DNA from: an uncultured delta proteobacterium
GTDB taxonomy: Bacteria; Desulfobacterota; Binatia; Binatales; Binataceae
Assembly (NCBI GenBank): GCA_963756155.1
Contig: CAVWMQ010000008.1
Coordinates: 23,240 to 87,239 of the forward strand
Direction of reading: 5' to 3'
Length of the DNA stretch: 64,000 bases
The position numbers and the translations under genes are program-made. Positions 8,291 through 48,372 of the stretch are shown here, one piece after another. The notes under the pieces were generated by a model. That model worked only from the letters and a program-made list of their open reading frames with translations. It was not told the origin of the DNA and did not search any database. Each line of letters starts with the position of its first letter. The stretch's first letter is position 1.

Positions 8291-8612
8291 AATATACTAC
8301 GCCGACCTGGGCCCTACGATCGGCTCCGAGATCAACAAACGCCGGCCGGTGCTGATTGTCAGCAACGAAGCGAATAATCGTGCCGCGAGCACGGTGACCA
8401 TCCTGCCAATCACCTCCAATGTGAGCCGGATATATCCCTTCGAGATTCCACTTTCGCCAAGAGACAGCGGCTTACCCAGACCTTCGAAGGCACAGGCGCA
8501 GCAGATTCGCACCATCTCCAAGGAACGCATCCGAGGCGATGCGGTGGCGCGACTCGGGGCGATCCCGATGCGCAAGGCGGCCGATGCGATGCGTCTTCAT
8601 CTAGACCTGTAG
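8277..8612 (+). CDS. mazF: type II toxin, MazF/PemK family endoribonuclease
   Basis: MRRGEIYYADLGPTIGSEINKRRPVLIVSNEANN...VTILPITS: canonical PemK/MazF motif. Confidence 0.8.
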   Translation: MRRGEIYYADLGPTIGSEINKRRPVLIVSNEANNRAASTVTILPITSNVSRIYPFEIPLSPRDSGLPRPSKAQAQQIRTISKERIRGDAVARLGAIPMRKAADAMRLHLDL

Positions 8613-22014: not shown

Positions 22015-22728
22015 TTGAATGCAACGAAGAACCCGCATGACACCGACCTCGACAGGCTGAGCCGGCTTCAGGCTTTGTCCTGGCTCTCCTCCACAGAGCT
22101 TTCAATGCTGGTGGCAGCGCTCGCGCTGTCCAACTTCAAGCGGCGAGAAGTGATCTTGCGCGCCGCCGAGCTCGCCACCCAGGCACACATTCTGTTGGCC
22201 GGCATCGCACGCATCACCTGCCTAAGTGCCCGCGGCGAGCGTGTCACTGTGGCGATGCTTGCGCCGGGTCCGATACCGGAATTTCCCGCACTTCCGATGA
22301 GCCAATCCGACTTCCGCTGCGAGGCTTTCAATGACTGCCGGGTCGGCAGCGTGAGCTGGGAAGATCTCGACGGCATCACTGTGAATGCCTCCGAATCGGC
22401 ATTCAAGAAATTCCATCAGAACGATCTGAAGCAATGGTATCGGCTGCTGCTCCGCAGTTCGAGCTCCTTGAATCTCGGTCTTCACGAACGGATCGCGATG
22501 ACCCTGCTGGAATTGTGCTCGGACTTTGGGATCGAGGAATCGCGCGGCACTCTGCTGCGAGTATCTTTCAGCCACAAAGACATTGCCAATCTGGTCGGAG
22601 CCTCGCGGCCAAGAGTCACGGAACATCTTGCGCAATTGGAGCGCGAACGATTTGTGGTCCGTCAGGGACGTCAACTCGTCGTCCGCGTGGGCAAGCTCTG
22701 GGACTCGATGACGGTGCATGCCGCCTGA
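22015..22728 (+). CDS. Crp/Fnr family transcriptional regulator (tandem paralog)
   Basis: Same architecture; HTH HKDIANLVGASRPRVTEHLAQLERERFV. Confidence 0.75.
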   Translation: MNATKNPHDTDLDRLSRLQALSWLSSTELSMLVAALALSNFKRREVILRAAELATQAHILLAGIARITCLSARGERVTVAMLAPGPIPEFPALPMSQSDFRCEAFNDCRVGSVSWEDLDGITVNASESAFKKFHQNDLKQWYRLLLRSSSSLNLGLHERIAMTLLELCSDFGIEESRGTLLRVSFSHKDIANLVGASRPRVTEHLAQLERERFVVRQGRQLVVRVGKLWDSMTVHAA

Positions 22729-33535: not shown

Positions 33536-35089
33536 ATGTCGCGGCGTATCAGATGGTTCGTGATACCGCCGGTTCTGCTGTTTGTATTCGGAGCGTTGGT
33601 TCTGAGTTGCGGCGGTGGAAGCAGTGGCTGTCCGAGCGGCGAAGTTTGCGGTCCCCCGCCTACCACAGGATTCCAGCTACAATCGATCGAGATTTGTTTC
33701 GGCTCGCCGGCGCCGCCCACGCCGACGCCCAGCCCCACGCCCAAGACAACTCCGACCCTGACCCCGTGCCCCGGCGCAACCAGCACCGCGATCAGCGTTC
33801 AAGAAACGATCAACTTCATCGCGCAGGGAACCTTCACCCTGGGCACAAAGACGGAGATACTCGGCCTCACCGACAACTCGACTACGCTGTGGACCTCGAG
33901 CAATAGCCAGGTGCTGCTGCCGCCGCTGTCCGGCCAGGGCGGACAGTTCCTCGGTCAGAGCTCCGGATGCGCCTGCGTCAACGCCAGCTCGGGCTCACAG
34001 GTAAGCTTGCCGGTCGGAGTTGCGGTCGAGACATCGGCGGCGGACTGCATATGCCCGACGCCGGCGCCGACTCCGGCTCCGACGCCGAAGGCCGGCGCAG
34101 TGTCGGCGTCGGCGCAAACGGCCGAGGCCACACCGGCGTCGGCGCCGGGCGCGGGCGGCAATAGCGCCGGCGTCCTGATGTGGCGCTACGACGCCGGCGC
34201 CAGGCTCGGCGGACCGATCGTGCCGGCACCCAACGGACACGCTTACTTCATCACCGAGAATGGCGTCCTACACGCGATCGACAGCCTGGGGCACAGCGTC
34301 TTCACGCGCCTGGCCGGAGGATCGACGGTCGCGGTGGCGCCCGACAATACGATCTATGCGGCCGGGACGGGCGGCGATATTGAAGCGCTCGACGCCGACG
34401 GCGTGCTCGAGTGGAAGGCTGACAGCGGCGGCGCGGCGAACATCCTCGCGGCGGGTGATGGCTACGGCTATGCGGCGGTGGGCAACGAACTGGTCGCGGC
34501 GAGCGCGCCGGGCCAGGTCGATTGGCGCGTGGCGCTCGCCGGAATTCCGCTCGCGGTGCTCCCGACCAGCGAGGGATTGCTGGTGGGCACCTCCAATGGC
34601 GCGGTTAGCGCGCTGTCATCGGACGGCGTGGTGCAGTGGTCATTTACGCCCACCGGTGGATTCGCGGGGCAGCTCGCGGCCTCGGACAGCGCGGCCTACG
34701 TGGGCGCGGGCGGCGGCATCTACGCGATCGATTTGAGGACGGGCTCGGAGCTCTGGCATGTCGGCACCGGCCACAGCATCACGTCGGGGCCGGCAGTCGG
34801 ATCGTCGGGGAATATCTACGTCGGCGCGGGGCCGCTGATCGCGATCGATCCTGACGGACACGTTGCCTGGAGCGTGGATGCGGTTACGCCGGGCAACACG
34901 CCGCTGGCAGCTACGACGGGCGGCGGAGTCTTCGGCGTCGGGTCGGACGGCCTTGCCGCGGCGATCGCGGCCGACGGCGGATACATCTGGACCACGCGAA
35001 GTTTCTCGAAGGTGACGAGCGCGGCCGCGTCATCGTCGGGAGTGATCTACGTCGGAACGGACGCGGGTCACATTTTCGCCATCAGGTAG
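33536..35089 (+). CDS. PQQ-like beta-propeller repeat lipoprotein (BamB-like fold)
   Basis: Lipobox LVLSCGGG; Pro/Thr-rich linkers (PTPTPSPTPKTTPTLTP, PTPAPTPAPTPK); repeated G..YA....DG..W motifs. Confidence 0.6.
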   Translation: MSRRIRWFVIPPVLLFVFGALVLSCGGGSSGCPSGEVCGPPPTTGFQLQSIEICFGSPAPPTPTPSPTPKTTPTLTPCPGATSTAISVQETINFIAQGTFTLGTKTEILGLTDNSTTLWTSSNSQVLLPPLSGQGGQFLGQSSGCACVNASSGSQVSLPVGVAVETSAADCICPTPAPTPAPTPKAGAVSASAQTAEATPASAPGAGGNSAGVLMWRYDAGARLGGPIVPAPNGHAYFITENGVLHAIDSLGHSVFTRLAGGSTVAVAPDNTIYAAGTGGDIEALDADGVLEWKADSGGAANILAAGDGYGYAAVGNELVAASAPGQVDWRVALAGIPLAVLPTSEGLLVGTSNGAVSALSSDGVVQWSFTPTGGFAGQLAASDSAAYVGAGGGIYAIDLRTGSELWHVGTGHSITSGPAVGSSGNIYVGAGPLIAIDPDGHVAWSVDAVTPGNTPLAATTGGGVFGVGSDGLAAAIAADGGYIWTTRSFSKVTSAAASSSGVIYVGTDAGHIFAIR

Positions 35090-35155
35090 ACTCGCATCGC
35101 GATCGCGAGCGTCGCGTCTTGACTGCCCAGGTCTGGCGCGCGGCATTATGGATCC

Positions 35156-35656
35156 ATGAGCGCAATCGAAATCATCAAGCGTCGGCTCAAGGAAGATCGC
35201 GTTCCGGAGACGCCTGACGAAATCTCGCAAAAGAAAAAGCGGCCGCGTGAAGTCGCCTTCATGGACGTCAACCTGTGCTTCCCGTGCGGCAAGTGCCCGG
35301 AGTTTTGTCCGGTCCAGTGCATCGAGTACCTGCGGCCGGGGTCGGTCCCGAACCGCGGTGTTCAGCCGGTGCAGGACCGTTTTCAGGAGTGTATCGGGTG
35401 CTACATCTGCGTCGAGGTCTGCGCGCTGCTCACCGACTATGATGCGGTTCGAATGTACGATAGCAACCTGGTCGAGGATGTGCTGGGCGTGAAAATTACC
35501 GACCACGTGCCGCCAGAACCGGTTCCCGCCGAGCCGTACGAGGAGTTTTTCTCAGAGGGCGGACTCTATCGCCATCTCGGCAAGGGCTCGCGCATCCGCG
35601 AGAAGATGACGGCCGAGGAACGCGCGATCTTCGCCCGCGAGCGAGTGCGCAGCTAG
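35156..35656 (+). CDS. 2x[4Fe-4S] ferredoxin-domain protein
   Basis: CFPCGKCPEFCP and CIGCYICVEVC cluster-binding motifs. Confidence 0.6.
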   Translation: MSAIEIIKRRLKEDRVPETPDEISQKKKRPREVAFMDVNLCFPCGKCPEFCPVQCIEYLRPGSVPNRGVQPVQDRFQECIGCYICVEVCALLTDYDAVRMYDSNLVEDVLGVKITDHVPPEPVPAEPYEEFFSEGGLYRHLGKGSRIREKMTAEERAIFARERVRS

Positions 35657-35821
35657 CGTCTCCTAGCGGCGCGCCACCCCAGCAGCGGTTTGTCCTTGTC
35701 GTAAGCCAGCGTTCGTATCGCGATGACTGAGGTTACGCGCGGTTGTTTATGATTCTTGAGCCGAGGTTTGACAGTGCGGAAAAACGCGGATAGCGTCAGG
35801 GCTATCGTAGGGAGCACCTGA

Positions 35822-36472
35822 ATGGAACGACAGGCCAGGCGCGCGCAAGTGCTGCGCCATGCCAAGCGCATCTTCGCCCGCAAAGGCTACCATCGCACCA
35901 ACGTCGCGGACATCATCGCGCGCGCGCGCATCGCGCGCGGGACCTTCTACCTCTACTTCGAGAACAAGAAGGACCTTTTCGAGGAGCTGTTGGAGCAGGT
36001 GGTAACCGAGCTGACCACCCGGATTCTGCGCCTGCGCGTCGGACCCGACGAGGCCAGCCCGGTCGAGCAGTTGCGCGAGAATCTTCGCCGCGTGCTGACC
36101 TACGTTCTGGCCGAGCGCGAGCTGACCGACATCCTGCTCAATCATTCGGTTGGGTTCGATCGCGAGCTCGACGCCAAGATTCGCGATTTTTATGATCGCA
36201 TCGCGGCGATGATTCAGCGTTCGCTGGATCTCGGCATCCAGATGGACCTGGTGCGCAAGTCCGACACGCGCGCGGTCTCGTATTGCATCCTGGGAGGAAT
36301 CAAGGAAGTCATTGGACTTTTGTCGCGCAATCATCCGACGGACATCACGGCACTGGTCGAGGAGATCCTGGACTTTGGGCTGCGCGGCGTGGCCCGTCCC
36401 GAGCTGTTGGAAGCGGTCCGAAACCTGGATGCGCCCCCTGGGGAGGGCGGCTTTTTTATTACCCGTAACTAG
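35822..36472 (+). CDS. TetR/AcrR family transcriptional regulator (first gene of lipid operon)
   Basis: RAQVLRHAKRIFARKGYHRTNVADIIARARIARGTFYLYFENKKDLF. Upstream GATAGC-N6-GCTATC palindrome at 35789-35806 and a TTGACA hexamer at 35768. Confidence 0.8.
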   Translation: MERQARRAQVLRHAKRIFARKGYHRTNVADIIARARIARGTFYLYFENKKDLFEELLEQVVTELTTRILRLRVGPDEASPVEQLRENLRRVLTYVLAERELTDILLNHSVGFDRELDAKIRDFYDRIAAMIQRSLDLGIQMDLVRKSDTRAVSYCILGGIKEVIGLLSRNHPTDITALVEEILDFGLRGVARPELLEAVRNLDAPPGEGGFFITRN

Positions 36473-36478
36473 ACTGAC

Positions 36479-37273
36479 ATGTCAGTTTATCGAAAAATTT
36501 CGCCTCGCGACGGACGCCAGACGCGTCGTCGGCGCGCCGCCTTCTACGACCTCGACGGCACCCTGGTCGATCTGAACTTGATCCACATGACGCTTTTCAT
36601 ACTGGCCAATATCGGCGAATGGAGCGCGCGCATTTCCTACCTGCTCAGTTTTGTTGTGCGGGTGCCGCGGCTTTACCTCGCCGAGCGTGACGATCGCCGC
36701 AAGCTCAACACCGTCTTGTTCGAATCGTTCAAGGGAGTGTCGCACGACCGGCTGGTCGAGCTTGGCGAGGAATATTGCGATCGCATCCTGATCAAGCATC
36801 TGTTCCCGCGCGCGATTGAGATGCTCGAGGCGAATCGCGCGGCCGGGCTCGAGCCGGTGCTGGTTACAGGCTCCCCGGATTTCATCGCCGCTCCCCTCGC
36901 CCGTCATCTCGGCGTCGCCGATTTCGCGGGCAACCGGCTGGTAATCAGCCGCGGCTGCGCGACTGGCCGGCTCGCGGAACCGGTGATGGCCGGCGAGGAC
37001 AAGGCGCACTGGTGCGAGGATTACGCTGCGCAGCGAGGAATCGATCTCACCGAATGCTGGGGCTACGCGGATTCGAACTACGACATGCCGTTCCTGGCCG
37101 CGCTGGGTCATCCGGTGGCCGTCAATCCGGATCGCAAGCTCAGAGCCGCCGCGATGAGCCGTCACTGGCCGATCATTCACTTCGAAATGGACGGGGCCGA
37201 CGCGACGCCCTCCGACGACGACGAACTCAAACTGAGCGAACTGGAACGGAGCGAATCGGATGGCGCGTCCTGA
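36479..37273 (+). CDS. HAD-IB family hydrolase (phosphoserine-phosphatase-like)
   Basis: AAFYDLDGTL (DxDxT), ...VTGSPDFIAAP..., GYADSNYDMPFL motifs. Confidence 0.75.
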   Translation: MSVYRKISPRDGRQTRRRRAAFYDLDGTLVDLNLIHMTLFILANIGEWSARISYLLSFVVRVPRLYLAERDDRRKLNTVLFESFKGVSHDRLVELGEEYCDRILIKHLFPRAIEMLEANRAAGLEPVLVTGSPDFIAAPLARHLGVADFAGNRLVISRGCATGRLAEPVMAGEDKAHWCEDYAAQRGIDLTECWGYADSNYDMPFLAALGHPVAVNPDRKLRAAAMSRHWPIIHFEMDGADATPSDDDELKLSELERSESDGAS

Positions 37274-38900
37274 GTCGAAGATTAAGGAGCTGAAGCCCGC
37301 CGATCTGCGCCACGAGGTCGGCGCGCGCCGCGATCTGGTCGTTACGCTTAATCGTCGCTCCGAGCGACGCCTGATTGCCTACGGTGACGATTTCATGTTC
37401 GAGAAGTTGCCGGTCGGCACTCGCGTGATCTATCCACCGCCGCCGCTCGAGGCGCTGCCCGACCCCGACCAGGCGATTCGCTATGCGCTCCTGCGGCCCG
37501 AGAACGCCGACCCGCTGTTCGCGCAGTTGAATCCCAATATGCGCGTGACCGTCGCGATCGACGACATCAGCCTGCCACTGCCCCCGATGCGCCGGCCCGA
37601 TATCCGCGAGCGCGTCCTGAACCAGGTGCTGCAGACGCTAGCCGACTATGGCGTCGACGACGTGCATCTCATCATCGCGACGTCGTTGCATCGCCGCATG
37701 ACCGAGGCTGAAATTCGCCGCGCCGTCGGCGAGCGCGCCTTCAAGCAGTTCTGGCCCGACCGCCTCTATAACTTCGACGCCGAAAATCGCGCCGAGCTCG
37801 CGATGCTGGGCAAGACCGACCATGGCGAGGAAGTGTGGCTGAGTAAGCGTGCCGTCGAATCCGATCTCGTCATCTATGTGAACATTAACCTCGTTCCGAT
37901 GGACGGCGGCCACAAGTCGGTTGCCGTCGGCCTCGCGCCGTATCAGAGCCTGCGCCACCATCACAACGCCGCGACGCTTCGCGACAGCCACTCGTACATG
38001 GATCCGACCCGCTCGGCGCTCCATCGCTCTGCCGATCGAATGGGCAAAATCGTGAACGACAACGTAAACGTGTTCACCGTCGAGACCGCCGTCAACACGC
38101 GCATGTATGGCGGGATGCTCGACTTTCTCCACAAGAACGAAGACCGCTTCACCGACTGGGATCGCACGCGGCTTGGCGGCTTCAAGTGGACTCTCAAAAA
38201 TCTCTCCAACGACTTGCGGCGCAAGGCGTTGCAGAATTATTCCTCACCGTACGGGATGACCGGCGTGTGGGCCGGTGAGACCGAGGCCGTCCATCAGAAG
38301 GCGCTCGCCAAGGTCTTCCAGCAATACGCGGTGCCGGTGAAGGGCCAGTCCGACATCCTGATCGTCGGCGTTCCGTTCATCTGCCCTTACAACGTCAACT
38401 CGATCATGAACCCGGTCCTCGTGCAGTGCACCGGGCTCGGCTACTTGTTCAATATGTATCGCGGCAAGCCGCTGGTGCGGCCCGGCGGCACCGTGATCAT
38501 ATGCCACCCGCTGCGCGACGAGTTCCATCCCGAGCATCACCCGAGCTACATCGAGTTCTTCCATCGATGCCTCGCTGAAACTACCGACGCGATCGAACTC
38601 GAGCGCGCCTTCGAGCACGAGTTCGCCCGCAACCCGACCTACATTCACATGTATCGCTACGGCCACGCGTACCACGGCGTGCATCCGTTCTACATGTGGT
38701 ATTGGGGCGAGCCCGCGCGCCAGCACGTCGGACGCGTGATCGCCGCCGGATGCGAAGAGCCGGAAGTCGCGGCGCGGCTCGGATGGGATTCCGCTGACAC
38801 CCTTGACCAGGCGATCGCGATGGCGACTTCCGACCTCGGCCGCTCGGCCACCATCACGTATCTCCATTTGCCGCCAATAGTGATTGCCGATGTCGAGTAG
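37260..38900 (+). CDS. LarA-like / DUF2088 (lactate racemase N-terminal domain) family protein
   Basis: 546 aa; VTVAIDDISLPLPP...DVHLIIATSLHRRMTEAE...LVPMDGGHKS pattern resembles nickel-pincer-dependent racemase/epimerase family. Assigned from memory, needs HMM check. Confidence 0.45.
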   Translation: MARPESKIKELKPADLRHEVGARRDLVVTLNRRSERRLIAYGDDFMFEKLPVGTRVIYPPPPLEALPDPDQAIRYALLRPENADPLFAQLNPNMRVTVAIDDISLPLPPMRRPDIRERVLNQVLQTLADYGVDDVHLIIATSLHRRMTEAEIRRAVGERAFKQFWPDRLYNFDAENRAELAMLGKTDHGEEVWLSKRAVESDLVIYVNINLVPMDGGHKSVAVGLAPYQSLRHHHNAATLRDSHSYMDPTRSALHRSADRMGKIVNDNVNVFTVETAVNTRMYGGMLDFLHKNEDRFTDWDRTRLGGFKWTLKNLSNDLRRKALQNYSSPYGMTGVWAGETEAVHQKALAKVFQQYAVPVKGQSDILIVGVPFICPYNVNSIMNPVLVQCTGLGYLFNMYRGKPLVRPGGTVIICHPLRDEFHPEHHPSYIEFFHRCLAETTDAIELERAFEHEFARNPTYIHMYRYGHAYHGVHPFYMWYWGEPARQHVGRVIAAGCEEPEVAARLGWDSADTLDQAIAMATSDLGRSATITYLHLPPIVIADVE

Positions 38901-41900
38901 CAACAACGGTAACGGCAGCGGCCGCAACGGAAACGGCCACGGCAACGGGCGCGTGAGCGCCTCCGCGATGCCACCGCTGGAGCAGGTGCTGCGCAAGCGG
39001 CGGATCCTGCTGACTGGCGCGACCGGATTCCTCGGCAAAGTCTTTCTCGAGCTGCTCCTCCAATGGCATCCCGAGATCGAACGCGTCTATTTGCTGATTC
39101 GCGGCGACCGCCGCTCCAGCCAGGGCCGCTTCCGCCGCGAAATTCTCGACTCACCGGTGGTGGCACCGCTGCGCGAGCATCTTGGCGCCCACTTCGATTC
39201 CTACATCGAAAGCAAAATCGCGGTCGTCTCCGGGGACATTACCAATGAAGGCCTGCTGAGCGACGACGCCGAGCCTTTCAAGCGCGGCAGTCTCGACGCG
39301 GTCGTGCACAGCGCCGGCCTGGTGAACTTCGAGGCGTCGCTGGAGAAAGCGCTGGCAGTCAACACCATCGGCGTCGCCAACGTGATCGAGTTCTGCCGCA
39401 AGGTCGGCGCCGCGATGATCCACGTCTCGACCTGTTACGTGGCAGGCAACGCCGACGGTCATCGCTTCGAGGACGATCTGCCGGAGAACTGGTGCCCTGC
39501 GGGCCGGCGCAAATTCAGCCTCGAACGCGAGGTCCGCGACGCGAGCGCGGCGATCGCTCGAGTCGAAGCCGAGTCGCGCGATCAGTTGCGCCAGTCCGAG
39601 CTGCACGCCTCCGCCGAAGAGGACGGCCAGTTCCTCGACGGCCACGAGACCGCATTCGAGCATCGGCGCAAGCGATGGGTCGAAGATCGCCTAAAGGACA
39701 TCGGGCGCAAGCGGGCGCTCAGCTGGGGATGGCCCAACACCTACAGCTACACCAAGAGCCTCGGCGAACAGCTCGTGCTGGCAGCGCGCGATGCGATCGA
39801 CGTTACTGTCGTGCGCCCCGCGGTTATTGAGAGCGCGCTGCGCGACCCCTTTCCCGGATGGAACCAGGGCGTCAACACCAGCGCGCCGCTGACCTACCTG
39901 GCTGGCCGCGGCTACCGCTTCTATCCGGCGAAAGCCGAGCTGGTTCTTGACGTGATACCGGTCGATCTCGCCGCGCACGCGATGATTCCGATCCTCGCCG
40001 CGACTCTCCTCAAGCGCCAGAAGCCCATCTACCAGCTCTGCACCTCGGATCGGAATCCGCTCCCGATGTACCGGCTGGTCGAGCTCACCGGCCTTGCCAA
40101 TCGCAACGAGCATCGCAAGCACGGCGGCCCGATGGGCCGCCTCGCGCGCCATCTGGAGGCCACCGTCGTCTCGCAGACGACCTACGACCTCGCGAGCCTC
40201 ACGCTTCCCAGGCTTCTCAAGCAGGGCGCGGAACTCGCGCGCAGTGTGCTTGGTGAGGATTCCGAGCGCGGCCGCAGGCTCGTGGCCGGTGCCGGCGCGC
40301 TCGAAGAGACCATGGACCTCGCGCGCTCGCTGGTTCAGGTCTACCGCCCCTACATCCAGGAGCTGGTCTACACTTTTCACTCCAACAACATCCGCGCGCT
40401 CTACGCCTCGATTCGCGAGGCCGACGCCGCCAACCATCCCTTCCATCCCGAAAAGATCGACTGGCGCGACTACTGGATAAACGTGCATATGCCCGGGCTG
40501 CGCCGGCACATCTATCCGCAGCTCGACCTTCACACCCGCGGCCGTCCGCGCCTGCTCCCGCGCCATCGCACGCTGGTTGATTTGCTCGAACGCGCCGCGG
40601 AGCGTTACGGCGCCGACACCGCGTTGATGGCGCACAAGCCGTCCGGCGAGCGCACCTCGGTAACTTACCGTGAGCTGCGCGACCACGCGCGACGCGGCGG
40701 TATCGTGCTCGCGCAGCGCGGGATCAAGCCCGGCGATCGTGTCCTGCTGATCAGCGAGAACTCGCCGGATTGGGTGCTCGCGTTCTTTTCGATTCTCGAA
40801 GCCGGCGCTATCGCGGTGCCGCTCGACCATCTGATTTCCGCCGAAGAGCTCGCGCCCATCTGCAAAATCGCCGAGCCGCGCGCCGCCCTCCGCTCCGCGT
40901 CCGTCGCGCGCCGCCTGGGCAGCGCGGTCCGCGACACGGTCGCGAAAATCGTCGAGCTTGATCTCGCCGAGCTGAGCCGCCCGTTCCTGCTCCGCGCCGA
41001 CGCCGCAGCACCGCCCACGCCCGACCGCAAGACCGTCGCCTCGATTGTGTTCACCTCGGGCACCACCGGCGCACCCAAGGGCGTGATGCTCACCCACGGG
41101 AATTTCTGCGCCGAAGTCTCGATGCTGGGCCGCGTGTTTGCGCTGGCCGGCGACGACCTGGTGCTCTCGCTGCTTCCGCTCCATCACACTTTCGAGTTCA
41201 CCTGCGGGATGCTGCTGCCGCTTGCCAGTGGCGCGACCGTCGCCTACCCGCTCGAGGTCGACGCGAAAAATCTCTCGCGCACGCTCGCTGATATCCGCCC
41301 CACCGCGCTCATTGGTGTGCCCGCGCTGTGGGAAGCGGTGCATCGTCGCATCGTCGACGAGGTCGAATCGCGCGGACCGTTCTTTCACGCCGGGTTCAAC
41401 AATCTGCGCGACCTCAATCGGCGCCTCGATCGCGACTCGGGTCTCAATCTCGGCTCGATCCTGTTTCGCCAGGCGCATTCGGCTCTCGGCGGCAGGCTCA
41501 AGCTCGCCGTCAGCGGCGGTGCCGCCCTGCCCCACCGCGTTGCCGAGTTTTTCAATGACATTGGAATCCGGCTGCTCGAGGGCTACGGCCTAACTGAGGC
41601 GGCTCCCGTGCTATGCGCGGCGCATCCCGACGAGCCGTTGAAGCTGGGCTCCGTCGGCAAGCCGCTCAATGGCGTCGAAATCAAACTCGCCGCCAACGGC
41701 CACGAGAACGGCGAGAGCATCATCGGCGAGATACTGGCCCGCGGCCCAAACGTGATGGCCGGCTACTATAGGAACCAATCCGCGACCGACGAAGTTATCC
41801 GCGACGGATGGCTGCATACCGGCGACCTCGGCCGCTTCGACGAGGACGGACGGCTCTCCGTTGTCGGCCGCGCCAAGGAAGTCATCGTCGATTCGGGCGG

Positions 41901-43344
41901 CAACAACATCTATATCGACGAGCTCGAAGAAGCCTATGGCCGCTCCCATTACGTGAAGGAGATGGCCGTAGTGGGCCTCACTGTCGGACAGGGTGAGCTG
42001 GTCGCCGCGTTGGCTGTGCCAGCGTATGCGCGCGGTGAGAGCCGCCGCTCGGTCGAGGACAAACTCCGCAGCCACTTCGAGAAGGTCGGCCAGGCGCTGA
42101 GTCCGCACAAGCGAATCAGGATCCTGCGCTTCACCGACGCCGACCTGCCGCGCACGCGTACCCGCAAGATCAGGCGCGCCGAAGTCGTCGCGATTGTCCG
42201 CCGGATGCTCGAGAGCAAGCCCGAGCAAGCCGCCTCGGCCAGCGCCGAGGTCGAGCCGTGGCTCGCCGAGACCCTCGCCGCAGTCTCCAGCGAGCCAGTC
42301 GCCATCACTCCCAGCACCCGCCTGATCGAAGACCTGGGTCTCGACTCGCTGGCGATGGCGGAACTCGGTGAGCATATCGCCGTGCGCGCGGGACGCGACA
42401 TCGGCCCGGAAGAGATGGCCAATCTGCGCACCGTTGACGACCTGCAGCGGCTCGCGCTTGCGGCCAACGGCAACGGCAGCCGGCATCGGATGCCTTCCTA
42501 CGCGCGCTTCGCGGAGCCGTATACACCGAAACTCCCCCGGCCGCTCCGATGGCTCGGCACCACGATCGCCCGCAATGCGCAGCGCGCCGCGTTCGAGTCG
42601 TGGCTCAAGCCAAAGATCCTCGGACGTGGGAACATCCCCGCCAATCGCAACGTGCTGGTGGTCGCCAATCATTCGAGCCACGTCGATTTCGGGTTGGTCG
42701 GCTACGCACTCGCAGCGATGGGCAACGATCTGCGCGTGCTCGCCGCCAAGGATTATTTTTTCAACACCCCGGCGCGCCGTTATATCGCGACTAACTTCAC
42801 CTCATTGATTCCCTTCGACCGCGAGCGTGCGCAGCTCGAGTCGCTCGACGACGCGCTCGCAGAGCTGAGCGCGGGCCGCAGCGTATTGATGTTCCCTGAA
42901 GGCACCCGCTCGGCCGACGGCGAGATGCAGGAATTCAAGAGCGGCGCCGGCTACCTGGCGCTGCGCAGCGGATGCGACGTGCTGCCGATGCATATCAGCG
43001 GGACCTTCAAGGTCCTCGGTAAAGGCAGCCTGGTCCCGCGCCGCGCACCAGTCGAGGTCCGCATCGGACGCGTGATTCCCAGCGCCGAGTTGCGCAACCT
43101 GGCCGAGAGCTCGGAAGGGATGGGCGCGTACCGGAAGCTCGCCGACTTCATGTACGAGGCGGTGATCGCGCTCAAAAGCGGGCGCAGCGTGCGACGCATC
43201 GGTCTGCGCGCCGCCGAAGCAGTGGTGCTGGCCCCGCAACTTCCGGCGCCCCAGACTCAGGAGCAGTCACAGGAACCGCCGAGCGCGAGGCCTCACAAGA
43301 CGCATGCGACGGGCACTCATGCGCGCGGACACGCCAAGGGTTGA
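38884..43344 (+). CDS. four-domain lipid biosynthesis enzyme: fatty acyl reductase, AMP-dependent acyl ligase, acyl carrier protein and 1-acyl-sn-glycerol-3-phosphate acyltransferase (ElbD-like)
   Basis: 1486 aa. N-terminal ILLTGATGFLGKVFLELLL...YLLIRG...VVHSAGLVNF...STCYV (NAD_binding_4/FAR). Mid region FTSGTTGAPKGVMLTHGNF...EGYGLTEA...GWLHTGDLGRFDEDGRL (AMP-binding). LIEDLGLDSLAMAELGEHIA (PP-binding serine). C-terminal VVANHSSHVDFGLV...FPEGTRSADGE (PlsC HX4D/EGTR). Confidence 0.85.
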   Translation: MPMSSSNNGNGSGRNGNGHGNGRVSASAMPPLEQVLRKRRILLTGATGFLGKVFLELLLQWHPEIERVYLLIRGDRRSSQGRFRREILDSPVVAPLREHLGAHFDSYIESKIAVVSGDITNEGLLSDDAEPFKRGSLDAVVHSAGLVNFEASLEKALAVNTIGVANVIEFCRKVGAAMIHVSTCYVAGNADGHRFEDDLPENWCPAGRRKFSLEREVRDASAAIARVEAESRDQLRQSELHASAEEDGQFLDGHETAFEHRRKRWVEDRLKDIGRKRALSWGWPNTYSYTKSLGEQLVLAARDAIDVTVVRPAVIESALRDPFPGWNQGVNTSAPLTYLAGRGYRFYPAKAELVLDVIPVDLAAHAMIPILAATLLKRQKPIYQLCTSDRNPLPMYRLVELTGLANRNEHRKHGGPMGRLARHLEATVVSQTTYDLASLTLPRLLKQGAELARSVLGEDSERGRRLVAGAGALEETMDLARSLVQVYRPYIQELVYTFHSNNIRALYASIREADAANHPFHPEKIDWRDYWINVHMPGLRRHIYPQLDLHTRGRPRLLPRHRTLVDLLERAAERYGADTALMAHKPSGERTSVTYRELRDHARRGGIVLAQRGIKPGDRVLLISENSPDWVLAFFSILEAGAIAVPLDHLISAEELAPICKIAEPRAALRSASVARRLGSAVRDTVAKIVELDLAELSRPFLLRADAAAPPTPDRKTVASIVFTSGTTGAPKGVMLTHGNFCAEVSMLGRVFALAGDDLVLSLLPLHHTFEFTCGMLLPLASGATVAYPLEVDAKNLSRTLADIRPTALIGVPALWEAVHRRIVDEVESRGPFFHAGFNNLRDLNRRLDRDSGLNLGSILFRQAHSALGGRLKLAVSGGAALPHRVAEFFNDIGIRLLEGYGLTEAAPVLCAAHPDEPLKLGSVGKPLNGVEIKLAANGHENGESIIGEILARGPNVMAGYYRNQSATDEVIRDGWLHTGDLGRFDEDGRLSVVGRAKEVIVDSGGNNIYIDELEEAYGRSHYVKEMAVVGLTVGQGELVAALAVPAYARGESRRSVEDKLRSHFEKVGQALSPHKRIRILRFTDADLPRTRTRKIRRAEVVAIVRRMLESKPEQAASASAEVEPWLAETLAAVSSEPVAITPSTRLIEDLGLDSLAMAELGEHIAVRAGRDIGPEEMANLRTVDDLQRLALAANGNGSRHRMPSYARFAEPYTPKLPRPLRWLGTTIARNAQRAAFESWLKPKILGRGNIPANRNVLVVANHSSHVDFGLVGYALAAMGNDLRVLAAKDYFFNTPARRYIATNFTSLIPFDRERAQLESLDDALAELSAGRSVLMFPEGTRSADGEMQEFKSGAGYLALRSGCDVLPMHISGTFKVLGKGSLVPRRAPVEVRIGRVIPSAELRNLAESSEGMGAYRKLADFMYEAVIALKSGRSVRRIGLRAAEAVVLAPQLPAPQTQEQSQEPPSARPHKTHATGTHARGHAKG

Positions 43345-44291
43345 TGATCGCGCGCGCAAGGGGGGATTGCCGTCGCGCGATTCGCGCCGCGGTCGCCTCG
43401 CTCTCGTTCGCGATCATCTTTTTCCGCGCCACGAACGGATTCGCCTGGGACAGTGCGACCCATAGGTTGATCACCCGGCTAGCGGTCCGTGCGCTTCCCA
43501 AGTCTCCGCTGAGTGTCGAATTCATGTTGAACGAAGACCACCTCGAACGGTACTCAGTGGAACCCGATTCGGTCCTGAAGAAGGAATACGGCCACAAAGA
43601 AGAAATTCGTCACTATATCGATCTGGAAAACCTCGGCCCCGATCCTTTTTCCGTGTTGAACCCCAATTTCGCTGCGATGCAGCAGCGGTTCGGCGAGCTG
43701 CTCGACCGGACGGGTACGCTCCCGTGGACGATAGACGTAATGGCCGCCAAGCTCCCGGGAGAGTGGATGCGCAACGACTGCACCGACGTGATTCGCGACG
43801 CCGGCTACTTGGCCCACTACGTCGGCGACGCGAGTCAGCCGCTGCATACTACCGCGAACTGGGACGGTTTCGATCGCGGCGATCGCGGCCTCCATGCGCG
43901 CATCGAGCTTGCGGTCGATCACAATGTGGAATTGCTCGGCGCACTCACTTCGGGCCAGGTGCACGCCGCAGACATTACCGCGGTGTGGCCGACGGAAATC
44001 ACAGAGATTCGGCAGGCGCACCAATACGTCGCCAAATTTATCGATGACGATCGCCAGTTGCGCCATCTGGCTCGGAGCGGCGACACCGACGCCTATGAAA
44101 AGGCGCTCGTCAGGCGCGACTTGCAGCTCTTTTCCGGCCAGATTGCATCGGCAGCTTCCACGCTCGCATCGATATGGCTGTTCGAATGGCGCAAGGCGGG
44201 AAGCCCGACGGGATGTGCAAAACGACTCCCTTCGCGCCACGGCAGACGCGATGGCCACGACGGCCGCTTACTGGATTACCACCCGTTCTGA
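43341..44291 (+). CDS. secreted zinc-dependent hydrolase, S1/P1 nuclease or phospholipase C family
   Basis: Signal peptide; WDSATHRLI, HYIDLEN, HYVGDASQPLH metal-ligand pattern. ATGA overlap with the upstream gene. Confidence 0.55.
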   Translation: MMIARARGDCRRAIRAAVASLSFAIIFFRATNGFAWDSATHRLITRLAVRALPKSPLSVEFMLNEDHLERYSVEPDSVLKKEYGHKEEIRHYIDLENLGPDPFSVLNPNFAAMQQRFGELLDRTGTLPWTIDVMAAKLPGEWMRNDCTDVIRDAGYLAHYVGDASQPLHTTANWDGFDRGDRGLHARIELAVDHNVELLGALTSGQVHAADITAVWPTEITEIRQAHQYVAKFIDDDRQLRHLARSGDTDAYEKALVRRDLQLFSGQIASAASTLASIWLFEWRKAGSPTGCAKRLPSRHGRRDGHDGRLLDYHPF

Positions 44292-44308
44292 TAGTTAAAC
44301 TTGGACCA

Positions 44309-44845
44309 ATGGTAGACTGGTTCAGCAAACGCCCAGACGGACATGCGCGCCCCACCCGCCATTGGGGCCGGCCCGCGGTCGCCGAGATTACGCCCACGCT
44401 ACTGATCGGCGAATATCCGCGCGACGAGGATGTCGACTGGCTCAAGGAAACTCACGCCGTCACCGCGGTGCTCAATCTCCAGGACGAAGAGGATCTGCGC
44501 GTCAACGGCATCGACATCGACGCGATGCGCGAGCGCTACGCTGAAAACGGTATCAAGCTGGTGCGCACTCCCATCCCCGACGGCAGCGCCGATGCGATGA
44601 AGGACCATCTCAAGGTCGCGCTCGACGATCTGCACGAATTGATCGGGGCGCAGGAGCGCGTATTTTTACACTGTAACGGCGGCGTCAATCGCGCGCCCAC
44701 CCTGGCGATCGCATATCTGCGCGCGTTCGGCGGGCTGTCGCTCAACGAGGCGCAGGCGCACGTCAAAACGCGGCGCGCATGCGGTCCGTTCATGACCGTG
44801 CTCGAGGAATACTTCGGGCCGCGTGACCTGAAGCCGGACGCATAA
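44309..44845 (+). CDS. dual-specificity phosphatase family protein (PTPMT1-like CX5R)
   Basis: HCNGGVNRAPT active-site P-loop; about 178 aa. The sequence as I read it shows an in-frame stop near 44288 that the ORF track (44174..44845, read through) contradicts, so coordinates near 44275-44300 may be off by 1 nt. Confidence 0.7.
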   Translation: MVDWFSKRPDGHARPTRHWGRPAVAEITPTLLIGEYPRDEDVDWLKETHAVTAVLNLQDEEDLRVNGIDIDAMRERYAENGIKLVRTPIPDGSADAMKDHLKVALDDLHELIGAQERVFLHCNGGVNRAPTLAIAYLRAFGGLSLNEAQAHVKTRRACGPFMTVLEEYFGPRDLKPDA

Positions 44846-44885
44846 CTTGGCAATCAGCGGCACCGCGAGAACTTTTCCCGAGACC

Positions 44886-45602
44886 ATGCCGAGGCGGCGT
44901 TTCCTGCTGGCCTGCGCGTGGGGCGTTCATCTGTACACCGCGCTCGGCGCGGTCGCGGGGCTGCTTGCGATTTACTTCGCGAGCCGATGGGAATTCCGCG
45001 CGTCATTCATCGCGATGGGCGCGGCGACTTTTATCGACTCGAGCGACGGGCCGCTCGCGCGCCTGGTCAACGTGCGCGCGCGAGTTCCATCCTTCGACGG
45101 CGCGCTGCTCGACAACATCGTCGACTACCTGACCTACACCGTAGCGCCCGTGTTCCTGATGATCGAAGCGGGAATCACGCCGCCAGGATGGATCGGGCTC
45201 GGCCTCGCGTGTTTCGTGATGCTGGCCAGCGCCTATGGCTTCTGTCAGACCGCAGCCAAGACCGACGACCATTATTTTCTCGGTTTCCCGAACTACTGGA
45301 ACCTCATCGCGTTCTATCTCTATTGCCTTGGCCGCAGCCCTACGTTCAACGCCGCGATCCTTGCAACCTTTGCCGTGCTGGTCTTCGTGCCGATCAAATA
45401 CATTTATCCCAATCGCACAGTCGCGCTCCGCCCGCTGACGCTCACCCTCGGGATCATCTGGGCGGTTATCACGATCGCGATGCTCGCGATGCTGCCCAGC
45501 GTGAATCCGGTGCTGCTGTTCGCCTCGCTGAGCTTCATCGCCTACTACCTGATCGCCTCTTTCGCACTCCACGCGCGCTCCGCGCTCGCCACACTGCGAT
45601 GA
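44886..45602 (+). CDS. CDP-alcohol phosphatidyltransferase family protein (Pcs/PgsA-like)
   Basis: DSSDGPLARLVNVRARVPSFDGALLDNIVD matches the D-G-x2-A-R...G-x3-D-x3-D motif; 6 TM helices. Start ATG 44886 or TTG 44847. Confidence 0.75.
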   Translation: MPRRRFLLACAWGVHLYTALGAVAGLLAIYFASRWEFRASFIAMGAATFIDSSDGPLARLVNVRARVPSFDGALLDNIVDYLTYTVAPVFLMIEAGITPPGWIGLGLACFVMLASAYGFCQTAAKTDDHYFLGFPNYWNLIAFYLYCLGRSPTFNAAILATFAVLVFVPIKYIYPNRTVALRPLTLTLGIIWAVITIAMLAMLPSVNPVLLFASLSFIAYYLIASFALHARSALATLR

Positions 45603-45615
45603 ATCGCAAATCGCA

Positions 45616-47415
45616 ATGAGCGCTTCCGCGTCCGGCCCGTTGACATCCCGCGCGCCCGTCGAGCCCTGGCTCGAAACTATCGACACCGACTCCCCGCTCC
45701 TTCTGATCGCGCCGCACGGGGGACGCGCGGAGCCTGCGACGCGCTCGATGCTGAATCCCAAGGTCAACGATCTGCACACTGCGGACATCACGCGCGAGTT
45801 GGCGCGACGCCTGGACGCGGCGGCACTGATCAACGCGGGAATGGATCGCAATCGGCTGGACTGTAACCGGATTCAGCAACTGCTCGCGCGCGCCCCGTGG
45901 CTGCTCGAGATGATCGCCGATCGGCTCGAACAAATCGTCGACCGGCACGGCCACGCGGTGGTCCTGCTGATTCACGGCTGGAACATCATCGAGCCGCGCG
46001 TCGATTTTGGACTGGGACTGCGCAACATCGGTGGCGAACTGCATCCGCCCGGCACCGCGTGCGTCTCCGCGTGCGACGAATTCATCCACGGACCGCTCGC
46101 GCACTTTGCCGAGCGGCTTCGCGAGCACGGAATCCGGCCTAGCTTCGGTATGCGTTACCCGGCAGGCGGACTACAGAACCTGGTGCAGGCATTTACCGGG
46201 CGCCACCGCGACAATCCGGCGGAGCCGCTCAGACGCATCGCCGCGATCGCGGAGCGCGCGCAGGTCGACGCGGCACAGCTCGAATTGTCGGTCGCGCTCC
46301 GGATGCCGGGGACGCTGCGCGCGCGATGCCTCGATGCGATCGAAACGTCGTTCGCATCCAACGGACACGCGCCGTCGCATCATGACCTCGACACGCCATC
46401 GCGTCCGGGAATCGTCGTAAACCGAACCCCGCGGCCGCGTTTGGCGCCCCCGAAGTCCCCCGCGGCTGCATCGGCGCCCGCTCCGCCAGCACGCGTCGGA
46501 GTCGAGTTCTTCGACCCTGCCACGCGCATCGGCGCGATGGCCAGCTTCGATATTGGAACCGGCTTCGGCGCGCGAATCATGATGCTCCTGGGCGGGCGGC
46601 GGGTCGCGCTCTTCACTGGGGAGGGCGCCGTCACGTGCAAGGCAGGCCGGATTGCGCTCGGACCTCTCGCACTTTCCGAGGATGGCCGCGAACTCCTGCT
46701 AACGTTCAAAGGACCCGCGGTAGTCGTTCCGGATTCATCGGCGTACTTGAGCATCGAGCGCGCGCTCGCCTCGGGCCGGCTCGATGGCGCGGCCGAGGTC
46801 TCGGCGCGGCTCAAATTTCCCGGCCGCAGAATCAATCTCGACGAAATCACCTCCGGCGCTGGCGCGCGCGACGCGAGCGGGCAGGCTTTCTTCGGAAGAC
46901 TCACCGGGACCGTCTCGGTCGACGGCATGACCAGCCCGATCGATGCGGTCGTGCGCGCGGGAGTTTCATTCACTGGGCTCGGGCCGCAAAAGTTCGTCGC
47001 GCGCCGGATGATATGGGCGTCCTTACCGGACGGCGTGTCACCGTCGGCGCTCGAGCTGCGGGTCGTTAAGACTGACGACGGCACGAATCAAAGTGCACGG
47101 GCGCTCGGACCGGTCGGATGGTCGCCATGCGAAATCAATCAGCTCGTCCTCGAGACGGCGTCGGTCGAAGAGCCGCCGCATCAACTCTCGGCGCTACTGA
47201 CGGTTGACGGCGCCCAGCCCAAGGCGCTCATCGGCCAGGTCGAGAGCTTCATCCCGCTCTCACGGCCGGGCCCCGAGCAGACGCGCATCTACACGTCGCT
47301 GGGCTTCGCGCGCTTCAGCTTCGGCGGGCGAGCGGGAGCAGGCATGTTCGAATACTCGCGGCGCGCGGAGACGGTGCTGACCGCGGCCGAATCCGACGAC
47401 GAAGACTCCGACTGA
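45616..47415 (+). CDS. N-formylglutamate amidohydrolase-like hydrolase domain protein with about 300-aa uncharacterised C-terminal domain
   Basis: LLLIAPHGGR...DLHTADITREL...RNRLDCNR...VVLLIHGW resembles the FGase family; last gene of the lipid operon. Confidence 0.4.
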   Translation: MSASASGPLTSRAPVEPWLETIDTDSPLLLIAPHGGRAEPATRSMLNPKVNDLHTADITRELARRLDAAALINAGMDRNRLDCNRIQQLLARAPWLLEMIADRLEQIVDRHGHAVVLLIHGWNIIEPRVDFGLGLRNIGGELHPPGTACVSACDEFIHGPLAHFAERLREHGIRPSFGMRYPAGGLQNLVQAFTGRHRDNPAEPLRRIAAIAERAQVDAAQLELSVALRMPGTLRARCLDAIETSFASNGHAPSHHDLDTPSRPGIVVNRTPRPRLAPPKSPAAASAPAPPARVGVEFFDPATRIGAMASFDIGTGFGARIMMLLGGRRVALFTGEGAVTCKAGRIALGPLALSEDGRELLLTFKGPAVVVPDSSAYLSIERALASGRLDGAAEVSARLKFPGRRINLDEITSGAGARDASGQAFFGRLTGTVSVDGMTSPIDAVVRAGVSFTGLGPQKFVARRMIWASLPDGVSPSALELRVVKTDDGTNQSARALGPVGWSPCEINQLVLETASVEEPPHQLSALLTVDGAQPKALIGQVESFIPLSRPGPEQTRIYTSLGFARFSFGGRAGAGMFEYSRRAETVLTAAESDDEDSD

Positions 47416-47448: not shown

Positions 47449-48372
47449 TCACGCGACGGCGCTCGCAACCCGTGCGCGCGAGGCGAGAATCGTTTCGACT
47501 CGCAGCGCCAGCTCGGTGAGGCTCTTACCGATCGGCGTGTCCGCGTACGCATGCACGAACAGGACACCGCGATCCGAGGCTTCGGCCAGGCGCGGATCGA
47601 AAGCGAAACGCGCGAGGATTGGCACATCGGCCTCGCGCGCGATTGCGGGCAGGCCGCCCTCCGGCCACAGCGGACGCACCGAACGGCATCCGTCGCAATG
47701 AAAGCCGGCCATGTTCTCGACGATTCCGATCACCGGCGTGGCGGTCGCCGTAGCGAGGCGGACTGCGTCGCGCGCGGCGCCCGCGGCAAGTCCGGACGGA
47801 TTGCTCATCAGGATAATCCCGTCGAGCTTGACCGTCTTCGAGAGCAATTCGAGGTTCCCGAGTCCCGGCCCGAGGTCGACTACCAGGTAATCAAGCGCGC
47901 CGAATCGCGACTGCCCGAAGACCAGCCGCAGCGCCTGCGCATAGCTCATCGCCTCCGGCCGCTCAGGTGGACGCGGTGCAGGCGCGTCGTCATCGCCGAG
48001 GAAGCTCACCGGCGGCGGCTCCCCGCCCGCGATCAGATCGCTGGCGACCACGCGCAATCCGTGCGGCCCCGCGACCGGCTCGATCCCCTCGGTCATCGGC
48101 AGATTGCGCGGCCGCTTCATACCGAGCATCGCGACCACGCTTGGCGCGTTGAAGTCGGCGTCGACCAGCGCAACTTTGCGGCCCTTGAGCGCCAACGCTC
48201 CGGCGACGTTGACGGCCACGATGCTCTTTCCGACGCCGCCCTTGGCGCTGGCGATCGCCACGATCGCCTTGACGCCGGAAAGGTTGCTCCTGATGCGTTC
48301 GAGGTCGTGCTCGAGTTGCGCCTGCGCCTGTGCGTCTGCCGCGTTCGCGAGCTCAGTGAAGATCTTCATCAA
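47449..48372 (-). CDS. apbC: Mrp/NBP35 family iron-sulfur cluster carrier ATPase
   Basis: AIVAIASAKGGVGKS P-loop, CDGC motif. Confidence 0.85.
   Translation of the reverse strand: MMKIFTELANAADAQAQAQLEHDLERIRSNLSGVKAIVAIASAKGGVGKSIVAVNVAGALALKGRKVALVDADFNAPSVVAMLGMKRPRNLPMTEGIEPVAGPHGLRVVASDLIAGGEPPPVSFLGDDDAPAPRPPERPEAMSYAQALRLVFGQSRFGALDYLVVDLGPGLGNLELLSKTVKLDGIILMSNPSGLAAGAARDAVRLATATATPVIGIVENMAGFHCDGCRSVRPLWPEGGLPAIAREADVPILARFAFDPRLAEASDRGVLFVHAYADTPIGKSLTELALRVETILASRARVASAVA

Follow-up and report, generated by a model that had tools for sequence, protein, structure and literature searches.

A TetR-headed elb-type gene cluster in the uncultured Binataceae probably encodes an aerobic ether-lipid pathway with a lineage-specific tail

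The closest described relatives of the locus reported here are the elb operons (elbA-elbE) of Myxococcus xanthus and Stigmatella aurantiaca (Lorenzen 2014; MIBiG BGC0000871; PMC9131029). Genetics in M. xanthus and Stigmatella links elbD to alkyl and vinyl ether lipids, and M. xanthus ElbD is genetically required for both kinds of lipid; its ligase and ACP activities have been shown in vitro, whereas its reductase and acyltransferase activities have not (PMC9131029). In the published operon ElbC is labelled a 'protein of unknown function', neither formation of the ether bond nor a role for ElbB, ElbC or ElbE has been assigned, and elbB/C are sometimes found separated from elbD/E (PMC9131029). 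Families resembling elb have also been described in sponge-symbiont Acidobacteriota and Poribacteria, with an elbB plus elbD core and variable neighbours, and CDP-alcohol transferases beside elb clusters as well as phosphocholine ether lipids in subdivision 4 Acidobacteria have been noted (bioRxiv 10.64898/2026.06.23.733905). Here we describe a locus of this kind in a 64,000-nucleotide stretch of DNA from an uncultured member of the Binataceae (contig CAVWMQ010000008.1, positions 23,240 to 87,239; hereafter the window, about 63% G+C, in whose numbering all positions are given). We estimate a probability of roughly 70% that the region 35822-47415 is a single Binataceae operon, headed by a TetR-family regulator, which joins an elb-type aerobic ether-lipid pathway to a lineage-specific tail.

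The region holds eight open reading frames (ORFs), all on the + strand. These genes, and the domains of the two multidomain proteins, are as follows.

35822..36472, + strand: TetR-family regulator (Pfam TetR_N 57 bits, TetR_C_24 33 bits)
36479..37273, + strand: ElbB, a HAD-IB phosphatase (TIGR01490 125.5 bits against a cut-off of 98.3; DxDGT motif intact)
37260..38900, + strand: ElbC, LarA superfamily (DUF2088), LarAH14/15/16 family (NF052592 836 bits against a cut-off of 740)
38884..43344, + strand: ElbD, a four-domain enzyme of 1486 amino acids (Pfam domains in one ORF)
~39004-40514, + strand: FAR-type reductase domain of ElbD (NAD_binding_4 170 bits, then Sterile)
~40585-42168, + strand: acyl-AMP ligase domain of ElbD (AMP-binding 275 bits)
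~42259-42444, + strand: ACP domain of ElbD (PP-binding)
~42622-42999, + strand: AGPAT-type acyltransferase domain of ElbD (Acyltransferase 85 bits)
43341..44291, + strand: predicted exported trinuclear-zinc phosphoesterase of the phospholipase C (PLC) / P1 nuclease superfamily (Pfam matches of orthologues)
44309..44845, + strand: cytoplasmic dual-specificity (CX5R) phosphatase, DSP (Pfam DSPc 52 bits; active site HCNGGVNR)
44847..45602, + strand: phosphatidylcholine-synthase (Pcs)-like CDP-alcohol phosphatidyltransferase (NCBIfam Pcs models; alternative ATG at 44886)
45616..47415, + strand: gene 8, a two-domain protein (FGase-fold hydrolase plus AttH/CrtC-like beta-barrel)
~45658-46365, + strand: putative N-terminal FGase-fold hydrolase of gene 8, residues 15-250 (fold; family match very weak)
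~46492-47370, + strand: C-terminal AttH/CrtC-like beta-barrel of gene 8, residues 293-585 (fold)

Genes 2-4, namely the HAD-IB phosphatase, the LarA-like protein and the four-domain enzyme, are the elbB-elbC-elbD core of the Myxococcus ether-lipid cluster. The locus has the ElbB-ElbC-ElbD order and the tight coupling in common with the M. xanthus and S. aurantiaca operons; it differs from them in lacking ElbA and ElbE, in carrying a TetR head and four additional genes after ElbD, and in its host, a member of the uncultured phylum Binatota. The four domains of ElbD are arranged as in the M. xanthus enzyme (PMC9131029), and its catalytic motifs (GATGFLG, YxxxK, TSGTTGAPKG, DSL, NHxxxxD and FPEGTR) are intact and legible in the translation. 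On three of the four features by which membership can be tested the locus belongs to the elb ether-lipid cluster family, the missing one being ElbE. An initial annotation, made from the window sequence, was right to call the region an ether-lipid operon but wrong to call it an undescribed pathway, because the core is that of the published elb cluster. Its assignments of TetR, HAD-IB, Lar_N and the four-domain enzyme hold in Pfam and NCBIfam, and those of the Zn hydrolase, DSPc and CDP-OH_P_transf are weaker.

An alignment of ElbC relatives was used to search GTDB at one genome per species. At least 596 of 600 candidate stretches were confirmed matches, and 80 loci, 62 of them from outside the Binataceae, were kept for synteny and compared by tblastn with all window proteins and by gene maps (individual loci are cited below by L numbers). 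The HAD gene lies directly 5' of the LarA-like gene in about 74 of the 80, in loci that span Binataceae, Acidobacteriota (mostly Pyrinomonadaceae), Myxococcota, Planctomycetota and Gemmatimonadales. Because this adjacency recurs across five phyla, the LarA-like gene is a core member of the cluster, and indeed encodes its best conserved protein, rather than the odd accessory for which it had been taken. ElbD follows ElbC directly in Binataceae, in Acidobacteriota and in part of the Myxococcota, including Myxococcaceae and Anaeromyxobacteraceae. Outside the Binataceae it is usually followed in turn by an NAD-dependent epimerase/dehydratase (PF01370), with an ElbE-like gene after ElbD in 21 loci, so that the characteristic order of Acidobacteriota and Myxococcota is HAD-LarAH-ElbD-NAD-epimerase. 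In two loci from Anaeromyxobacteraceae we find epimerase-HAD-LarAH-ElbD-epimerase, the same arrangement as elbA-B-C-D-E; the position of the LarA-like protein between HAD and ElbD thus reproduces that of ElbC, and hence we identify it as ElbC.

The Binataceae order is TetR-HAD-LarAH-ElbD-[ZnH]-DSP-Pcs-G8, where ZnH is the Zn hydrolase and G8 gene 8, followed by the same convergent ParA/Mrp gene that borders the operon in the window. Binataceae loci were the only ones with TetR 5' of the HAD gene, and TetR, DSP, the CDP-alcohol transferase and gene 8 were likewise confined to Binataceae, where they occur in 13 of the approximately 16 loci with enough sequence; the combination of TetR and tail was found in none of the 62 non-Binataceae loci. 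The tail replaces elbE in Binataceae. It lies directly after ElbD, on the same strand, in 14 Binataceae loci of wide divergence; the DSP-Pcs-G8 junctions always fall between -22 and +28 nucleotides, and the gap between ElbD and the tail is short in most loci. In L085, a divergent relative, all eight genes stand in order despite a gene 8 only 39% identical to that of the window, and the downstream genes (ParA, DksA, RimO, LolA, FtsK and RNase J) also match. The neighbourhood conservation by which the initial annotation proposed to judge the operon was therefore found within the Binataceae for TetR and tail, with the Zn hydrolase in about half the loci, and was absent outside them, which makes the tail a lineage-specific extension. 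The closest named relatives of ElbC, at 85-90% identity, come from Candidatus Binataceae or Binatus metagenome-assembled genomes (phylum Binatota, class Binatia). An identical ElbC was present on two ENA metagenome contigs (L001 and L002), whose other genes were 68-100% identical to those of the window by tblastn; these two were not counted as independent evidence.

The seven junctions of the operon measure, in gene order, +6, -14, -17, -4, +17, +1 and +13 nucleotides. Generic scans gave no sigma-70-like promoter and no convincing terminator between the eight genes, and terminator-like sites were rarer than in shuffled sequence (7 against 10.0 +/- 3.6). The short junctions, the lack of internal promoter-like sites and the scarcity of terminator-like ones confirm a compact unit of eight tightly coupled genes on one strand, as had been proposed. 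On the 3' side the neighbour is a convergent ParA/Mrp-type gene (47449-48372), and on the 5' side a ferredoxin-like gene precedes the operon by a gap of 165 nucleotides, within which two features lie near the start of the TetR gene.

35768..35796, + strand: predicted sigma-70-like promoter (TTGACA at 35768-35773, a 17-nucleotide spacer, TAGCGT at 35791-35796)
35789..35806, no strand assigned: palindrome GATAGC-N6-GCTATC, overlapping the -10 element and proposed earlier as a TetR operator

The promoter motif lies about 25 nucleotides 5' of the TetR start codon. The generic scan overlooked it, as its -10 element matches at three of six positions; it was exposed by conservation across loci, a similar motif (TTGACA-N17/18-TAGCGT/TAGCTT/TAGGTT) being found at the same place 5' of TetR in most of 18 Binataceae loci. 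Since, within the cluster region, the motif has no + strand match other than the site at 35768-35796, the data fit a single promoter upstream of TetR that would drive the whole unit. The palindrome, in contrast, is real but neither conserved in the orthologous loci nor statistically unusual: it is present in the window and L002, has one mismatch in L001 and is absent from the 16 other Binataceae loci, and 15 of 100 shuffled sequences gave one or more matches at no more than one mismatch. It may at best be a strain-specific operator.

A number of observations weigh against the reading of the region as one ether-lipid operon, and several of them are the ground of the main rival explanation, namely that two units adjoin, TetR with elbB-C-D for the ether lipid and, beside it, ZnH-DSP-Pcs-G8 as a self-standing module, only syntenic with elb, that would salvage choline or phospholipid head groups or remodel membranes. 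In such a module, which would work on ordinary diacyl lipids, the PLC-like enzyme would for example liberate phosphocholine and the phosphatase choline, and Pcs would make the cell's own phosphatidylcholine. In keeping with this, the tail is absent outside Binataceae and, within the family, from L006 and L012; the Zn hydrolase gene is present in only about half of the Binataceae loci; gaps of 485-740 nucleotides separate ElbD from DSP in L013 and L014, and two extra genes are inserted in L003. Tail proteins have also diverged much more rapidly (32-55% identity in L085) than those of the core (66-88%), and distant relatives of gene 8 adjoin Pho-type or beta-oxidation genes and not elb, their proximity to PF01663 phosphodiesterase, PhoU and Ppx genes being a phosphate-scavenging context. 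Against two independent units stand the 4-nucleotide overlap that joins the tail to ElbD in the window, the lack of any promoter- or terminator-like site between the two, and the persistence of the tail directly after ElbD across the 14 divergent loci described above. We therefore regard this explanation as unlikely, though it is the one to be taken most seriously.

Other adverse points concern the product. ElbE has no counterpart in the window, where the sole tblastn match to this NAD-dependent epimerase/dehydratase was the reductase domain of ElbD itself, and ElbE contributes to ether-lipid yield in M. xanthus (PMC9131029). Pontiella possesses ElbD homologues, yet no ether lipids were detected (PMC11868695). 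Our literature search returned no paper that links Binatota with ether lipids. Among the window ORFs scanned (the others were judged housekeeping by eye) no LarB, LarC or LarE domain was found, which bears out the earlier remark that the LarA-like protein has no such partners in the window. LarAH14 from Frankia, a family named in the title of the model that ElbC matches, was inactive on the 2-hydroxyacids tested (PMC7583248), and the Pcs-like transferase scores below all Pcs equivalog cut-offs (300-440), which are strict and clade-specific.

A second rival explanation takes up some of these points: instead of glycerol ethers the ElbD-type enzyme would produce fatty alcohols, aldehydes, lipids of the wax type or lysolipids that it acylates, and the HAD and LarA-like proteins would serve otherwise. 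Besides the Pontiella result, it can draw on the fact that neither reduction nor acyl transfer by M. xanthus ElbD has ever been shown in vitro (PMC9131029) and on HAD-LarAH pairs that have no ElbD next to them, as in Polyangiaceae, Sorangium, Minicystis and Planctomycetota. ElbD is encoded elsewhere in the genomes of the first three, a separation of the kind published for elbB/C and elbD/E. The genetics of M. xanthus and Stigmatella, which connects elbD with both alkyl and vinyl ethers, speaks against a non-ether product, as does the presence of the three-gene core in Pyrinomonadaceae, subdivision 4 Acidobacteria that are known ether-lipid producers. Hence we consider it highly unlikely.

Returning to the ether-lipid operon, its most informative protein is ElbC. 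The model that it matches, NF052592, is titled 'NPN-dependent hydroxyacid isomerase, LarAH14/15/16 family', its Lar_N domain (PF09861) scores 123 bits, and its closest solved structures are LarA_Sp (9Q2U/9Q3K, E 7e-28) and LarA_Bw (9Q3J, E 3e-26). Residues of ElbC were mapped by alignment to LarA_Sp and then counted in 79 sequences of the ElbC family. All 79 keep H144 (the first catalytic histidine, His108), K219 (the cofactor-linking Lys184) and H235 (the nickel ligand His200). The equivalent of the second catalytic histidine, His174, is V212 in all 79, as judged from a sequence alignment in which the loop is three residues shorter. In canonical LarA, Arg75 binds the cofactor phosphate and the substrate carboxylate. 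By alignment its equivalent in ElbC is L105, and this position holds Leu in 75 of the sequences, Val in three and Met in one, and is never basic. The C-terminal half of ElbC has invariant His-rich motifs of its own (HHPSYIEFFHR and YHGxHPF).

Like ElbC, LarA_Sp and LarA_Bw retain the first catalytic histidine, the lysine and the nickel-binding histidine and have lost the second catalytic histidine (PMC12611868). ElbC differs from them in that identity is low, the match being split into two stretches, in the replacement of the phosphate/carboxylate Arg/Lys by Leu, and in its genomic context, which is lipid rather than carbohydrate. Judged from these residues, ElbC probably binds the nickel-pincer nucleotide cofactor; as no larB, larC or larE was seen in the window, it is through the residues that this dependence is read. 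The retention of cofactor residues, the loss of substrate residues and the inactivity of LarAH14 on 2-hydroxyacids together argue for a cofactor-binding enzyme whose substrate is not a 2-hydroxy acid. Furthermore, ElbC identity across phyla is 55-60%, compared with 35-45% for HAD and ElbD, and in L085 ElbC is 88% identical to that of the window, compared with 32-71% for the other seven proteins; these figures point to unusually strong constraint. In two ElbC relatives, P0058 and P0065 (72% and 68% identical), H144 is replaced by N or R and the cofactor-linking lysine is lost, and both look degenerate or repurposed. A gluconate 2-epimerase role, which the LarAH15 label might suggest from the Phytophthora enzyme (PMC11770544), was set aside, since that enzyme has a canonical GntE-type pocket; the ElbC family, in contrast to it, lacks Arg75 and His174.

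The pathway that we propose for the operon would begin with the ligase domain of ElbD, which would activate a fatty acid and load it onto the ACP domain, after which the FAR-type domain would reduce the ACP-bound acyl group to the aldehyde or alcohol. ElbC and ElbB, which we suppose to act together because their genes are paired almost universally, would then install the 1-O-alkyl bond on a glycerol-phosphate backbone, and the AGPAT domain of ElbD would acylate the sn-2 position. ElbC may do so by a redox-neutral 'hydride borrowing' at the C2 hydroxyl of a glycerol phosphate derivative, giving a transient ketone for ether exchange followed by return of the hydride, with ElbB taking off a phosphate before or after this step. 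The Pcs-like transferase would add a choline-type head group to the CDP-activated (alkyl)acylglycerol, giving ether phosphatidylcholine, and the DSP, the exported Zn-dependent PLC-like enzyme and the gene 8 fusion may serve in head-group processing or recycling or in lipid remodelling. The boldest form of this scheme, in which ElbC is the missing catalyst of aerobic bacterial ether-bond formation, borrowing and returning the C2 hydride of a glycerol-phosphate derivative, with ether phosphatidylcholine to follow in Binataceae, is a conjecture that we think quite unlikely to be right in full. If it were, ElbC would replace both the flavoenzyme AGPS and the alkyl-dihydroxyacetone-phosphate reductase of the eukaryotic route, and it would bring nickel-pincer catalysis, for the first time, both into lipid biosynthesis and to a substrate that is not a carboxylate. 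In our literature search no publication connected ether lipids with DUF2088 or LarA.

The head-group step depends on the identity of gene 7, which its similarities mark as Pcs-like rather than as resembling a phosphatidylglycerophosphate (PGP) synthase. Five NCBIfam Pcs models match it over the full length with 196, 150, 139, 132 and 130 bits (E down to 7e-58), PssA reaches 43 bits, and the nine NCBIfam matches at E <=1 include none of the PgsA type. The translation contains the motif DG-x2-AR-x12-G-x3-D-x3-D (as DGPLAR-x12-GALLDNIVD), with the x12 spacing that we take to be Pcs-specific, and JGI annotates orthologues of gene 7 as phosphatidylcholine synthase. In comparison with bacterial Pcs (NCBIfam NF045884-NF045888) gene 7 shows full-length homology, a similar size (about 240-250 amino acids) and the same motif; its scores lie below the equivalog cut-offs, and known Pcs genes have not been reported inside ether-lipid clusters. 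A search of PDB sequences with this protein gave one weak chance match and nothing usable. An overlapping ORF at 44918-45619 was rejected as the transferase, as it has no Pfam or NCBIfam match and it is the 44847-45602 frame that carries CDP-OH_P_transf.

For the neighbouring phosphatase the likeliest start codon is the ATG at 44309 (178 amino acids), as in the gene calls of related contigs; a start at 44174 is disfavoured. Its best solved relatives are LSF2 (E 2e-21) and then LSF1, SEX4 and laforin (to 1e-8), that is, plant glucan phosphatases and laforin, and PTPMT1 is not among the 60 matches to solved structures listed at E <=0.01. The initial annotation had described the protein as a PTPMT1-like PGP phosphatase; the CX5R active site stands, whereas the affinity lies elsewhere. 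These results bear on a third explanation, implied by that description, in which the transferase would be a synthase of PGP or a similar product and the DSP its phosphatase, leading to ether phosphatidylglycerol or cardiolipin-type lipids. A phosphatase gene lying one nucleotide upstream of a CDP-alcohol transferase gene suits a route through a phosphorylated alcohol (PGP or phosphatidylinositol phosphate), and a transferase below the Pcs equivalog cut-offs leaves its alcohol substrate unsettled. Set against this are the dominance of the Pcs models (130-196 bits compared with 43 for PssA) and the want of a PgsA-type one, the Pcs-type x12 spacing, and the resemblance of the DSP to LSF2, SEX4 and laforin (E 2e-21 to 1e-8) with PTPMT1 missing from the matches listed. 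The pairing is not borne out, and we hold such a product to be most improbable.

Gene 5 appears from its sequence to be an exported zinc phosphoesterase slightly nearer to phospholipase C than to nucleases. The window protein falls short of the Pfam gathering thresholds (26.6 against 26.8 for PLC, 24.4 against 29.5 for S1-P1), and each of the six orthologues hits both families at E <0.01, the best values being 1e-8 for Zn_dep_PLPC and 7e-7 for S1-P1 nuclease. A single-sequence AlphaFold model had a confidence (pLDDT) of 36.9 and was not used for a fold search; a profile of the six orthologues was used instead, and it found Bacillus cereus phosphatidylcholine-specific PLC (PC-PLC) at E 0.005 and S1/P1 nucleases at 0.6. 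H159, D163, H169, H185 and E189 align with the zinc ligands H118, D122, H128, H142 and E146 of the B. cereus enzyme, and these five, together with W36, H41, D76, H91 and two cysteines, are invariant in the six orthologues. The hydrophobic leader of every orthologue ends in A|W(D/N)S-TH, so that cleavage would leave an N-terminal tryptophan. The zinc-ligand set and the mature N-terminal Trp after a signal peptide are common to gene 5, B. cereus PC-PLC and S1/P1 nucleases; gene 5 differs in the very weak overall similarity (profile E 0.005) and in an extra C-terminal helical region. Its earlier description as a secreted S1/P1-nuclease/phospholipase-C-like zinc hydrolase holds, at weaker domain scores.

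Gene 8 had been described as an FGase-like hydrolase with an unknown C-terminal domain. The first part of that description is kept as a putative fold with a very weak family match, and the C-terminal domain is given as an AttH/CrtC-like barrel. Gene 8 is only 10-19% identical to either FGase (PF05013) or the AttH/CrtC-like barrels (2ICH, 7A0Q and 9FZN), a search of PDB sequences with it gave no match, and in the literature we came across no account of a protein that joins them. Two-domain relatives with 31-35% identity (L083/L084, L089/L090, L091 and L088) are divergently oriented beside phosphate-starvation-type genes, the neighbours being PF01663 phosphodiesterase, Ppx-GppA, PhoU and a sensor kinase with a response regulator; one distant relative adjoins MaoC, acyl-CoA dehydrogenase, thiolase and ChsH2-like genes.

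What is new in this locus is the host phylum, the loss of ElbE, a TetR gene at the head of the operon and the make-up of the tail (Pcs-like transferase, LSF2-like DSP and FGase-AttH fusion, with the PLC-like enzyme as an optional member). The idea that elb clusters are extended by head-group genes is not new, since CDP-alcohol transferases or phosphatases near elb and phosphocholine ether lipids have already been noted; some sponge-symbiont clades carry CDP-alcohol phosphatidyltransferases and a phosphatase near elb, as the Binataceae do. The set of PLC-like enzyme, DSP, Pcs-like transferase, FGase-AttH fusion and TetR is found in Binataceae only and is undescribed in the sponge-symbiont paper (bioRxiv 10.64898/2026.06.23.733905). 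The elb cluster is hereby extended to Binatota, a widespread uncultured phylum of soil and peat, in a natural variant that appears to manage without ElbE in cis and has a Pcs-like head-group enzyme built into the pathway. Such a variant predicts ether phosphatidylcholines in soil bacteria, which is relevant for the source assignment of environmental ether lipids. The chief general gain is that ElbC can be placed in the LarA superfamily, its cofactor site intact and its substrate site altered; this yields a testable biochemical hypothesis in a field where aerobic bacterial alkyl-ether-lipid synthesis is unsolved. Current views are not overturned, and we offer the finding as a useful lead.

Some further features of the operon and of its counterparts may be recorded. 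The nearest named model for the TetR protein is NCBIfam FadR (acyl-CoA-sensing, Bacillus), at 65 bits far below the cut-off of 200. A terminator-like GC hairpin with a T-run lies at 36432-36459, in the final 40 nucleotides of the TetR gene and 20 nucleotides before the HAD start, and might partly uncouple TetR from the biosynthetic genes, in a region poorer in such sites than shuffled sequence. In L003 (9112-10554) the genes between ElbD and the Zn hydrolase encode a SAM-dependent methyltransferase and a short-chain dehydrogenase, which hints at variation in the product. The position of the tail in L012 (16085-18541) is taken by an ORF of 818 amino acids after ElbD, secreted-sulfatase-like by eye. 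L013 and L014 are the most divergent of the Binataceae-type loci, and their ElbD-DSP gap leaves room for a promoter or a small gene. The gene calls of L001 and L002 split ElbD and shorten TetR and gene 8, probably through assembly or indel errors there, the ORFs of the window being intact.

Just 5' of the operon (33536-35656) lie genes for a PQQ-like beta-propeller protein with a Pro/Thr-rich linker and for the small ferredoxin-like protein, a pair that is syntenic with the operon, across the promoter gap, in L008, L016, L018 and L069. Elsewhere in the window, a type II toxin-antitoxin pair is found at 8048-8612, where a small ORF resembling an antitoxin overlaps the gene for a toxin of the PemK/MazF type (Pfam PemK_toxin, E 3e-26), and two adjacent paralogous ORFs on the + strand (21016-21795 and 22015-22728) resemble, by eye, Crp/Fnr-type regulators.

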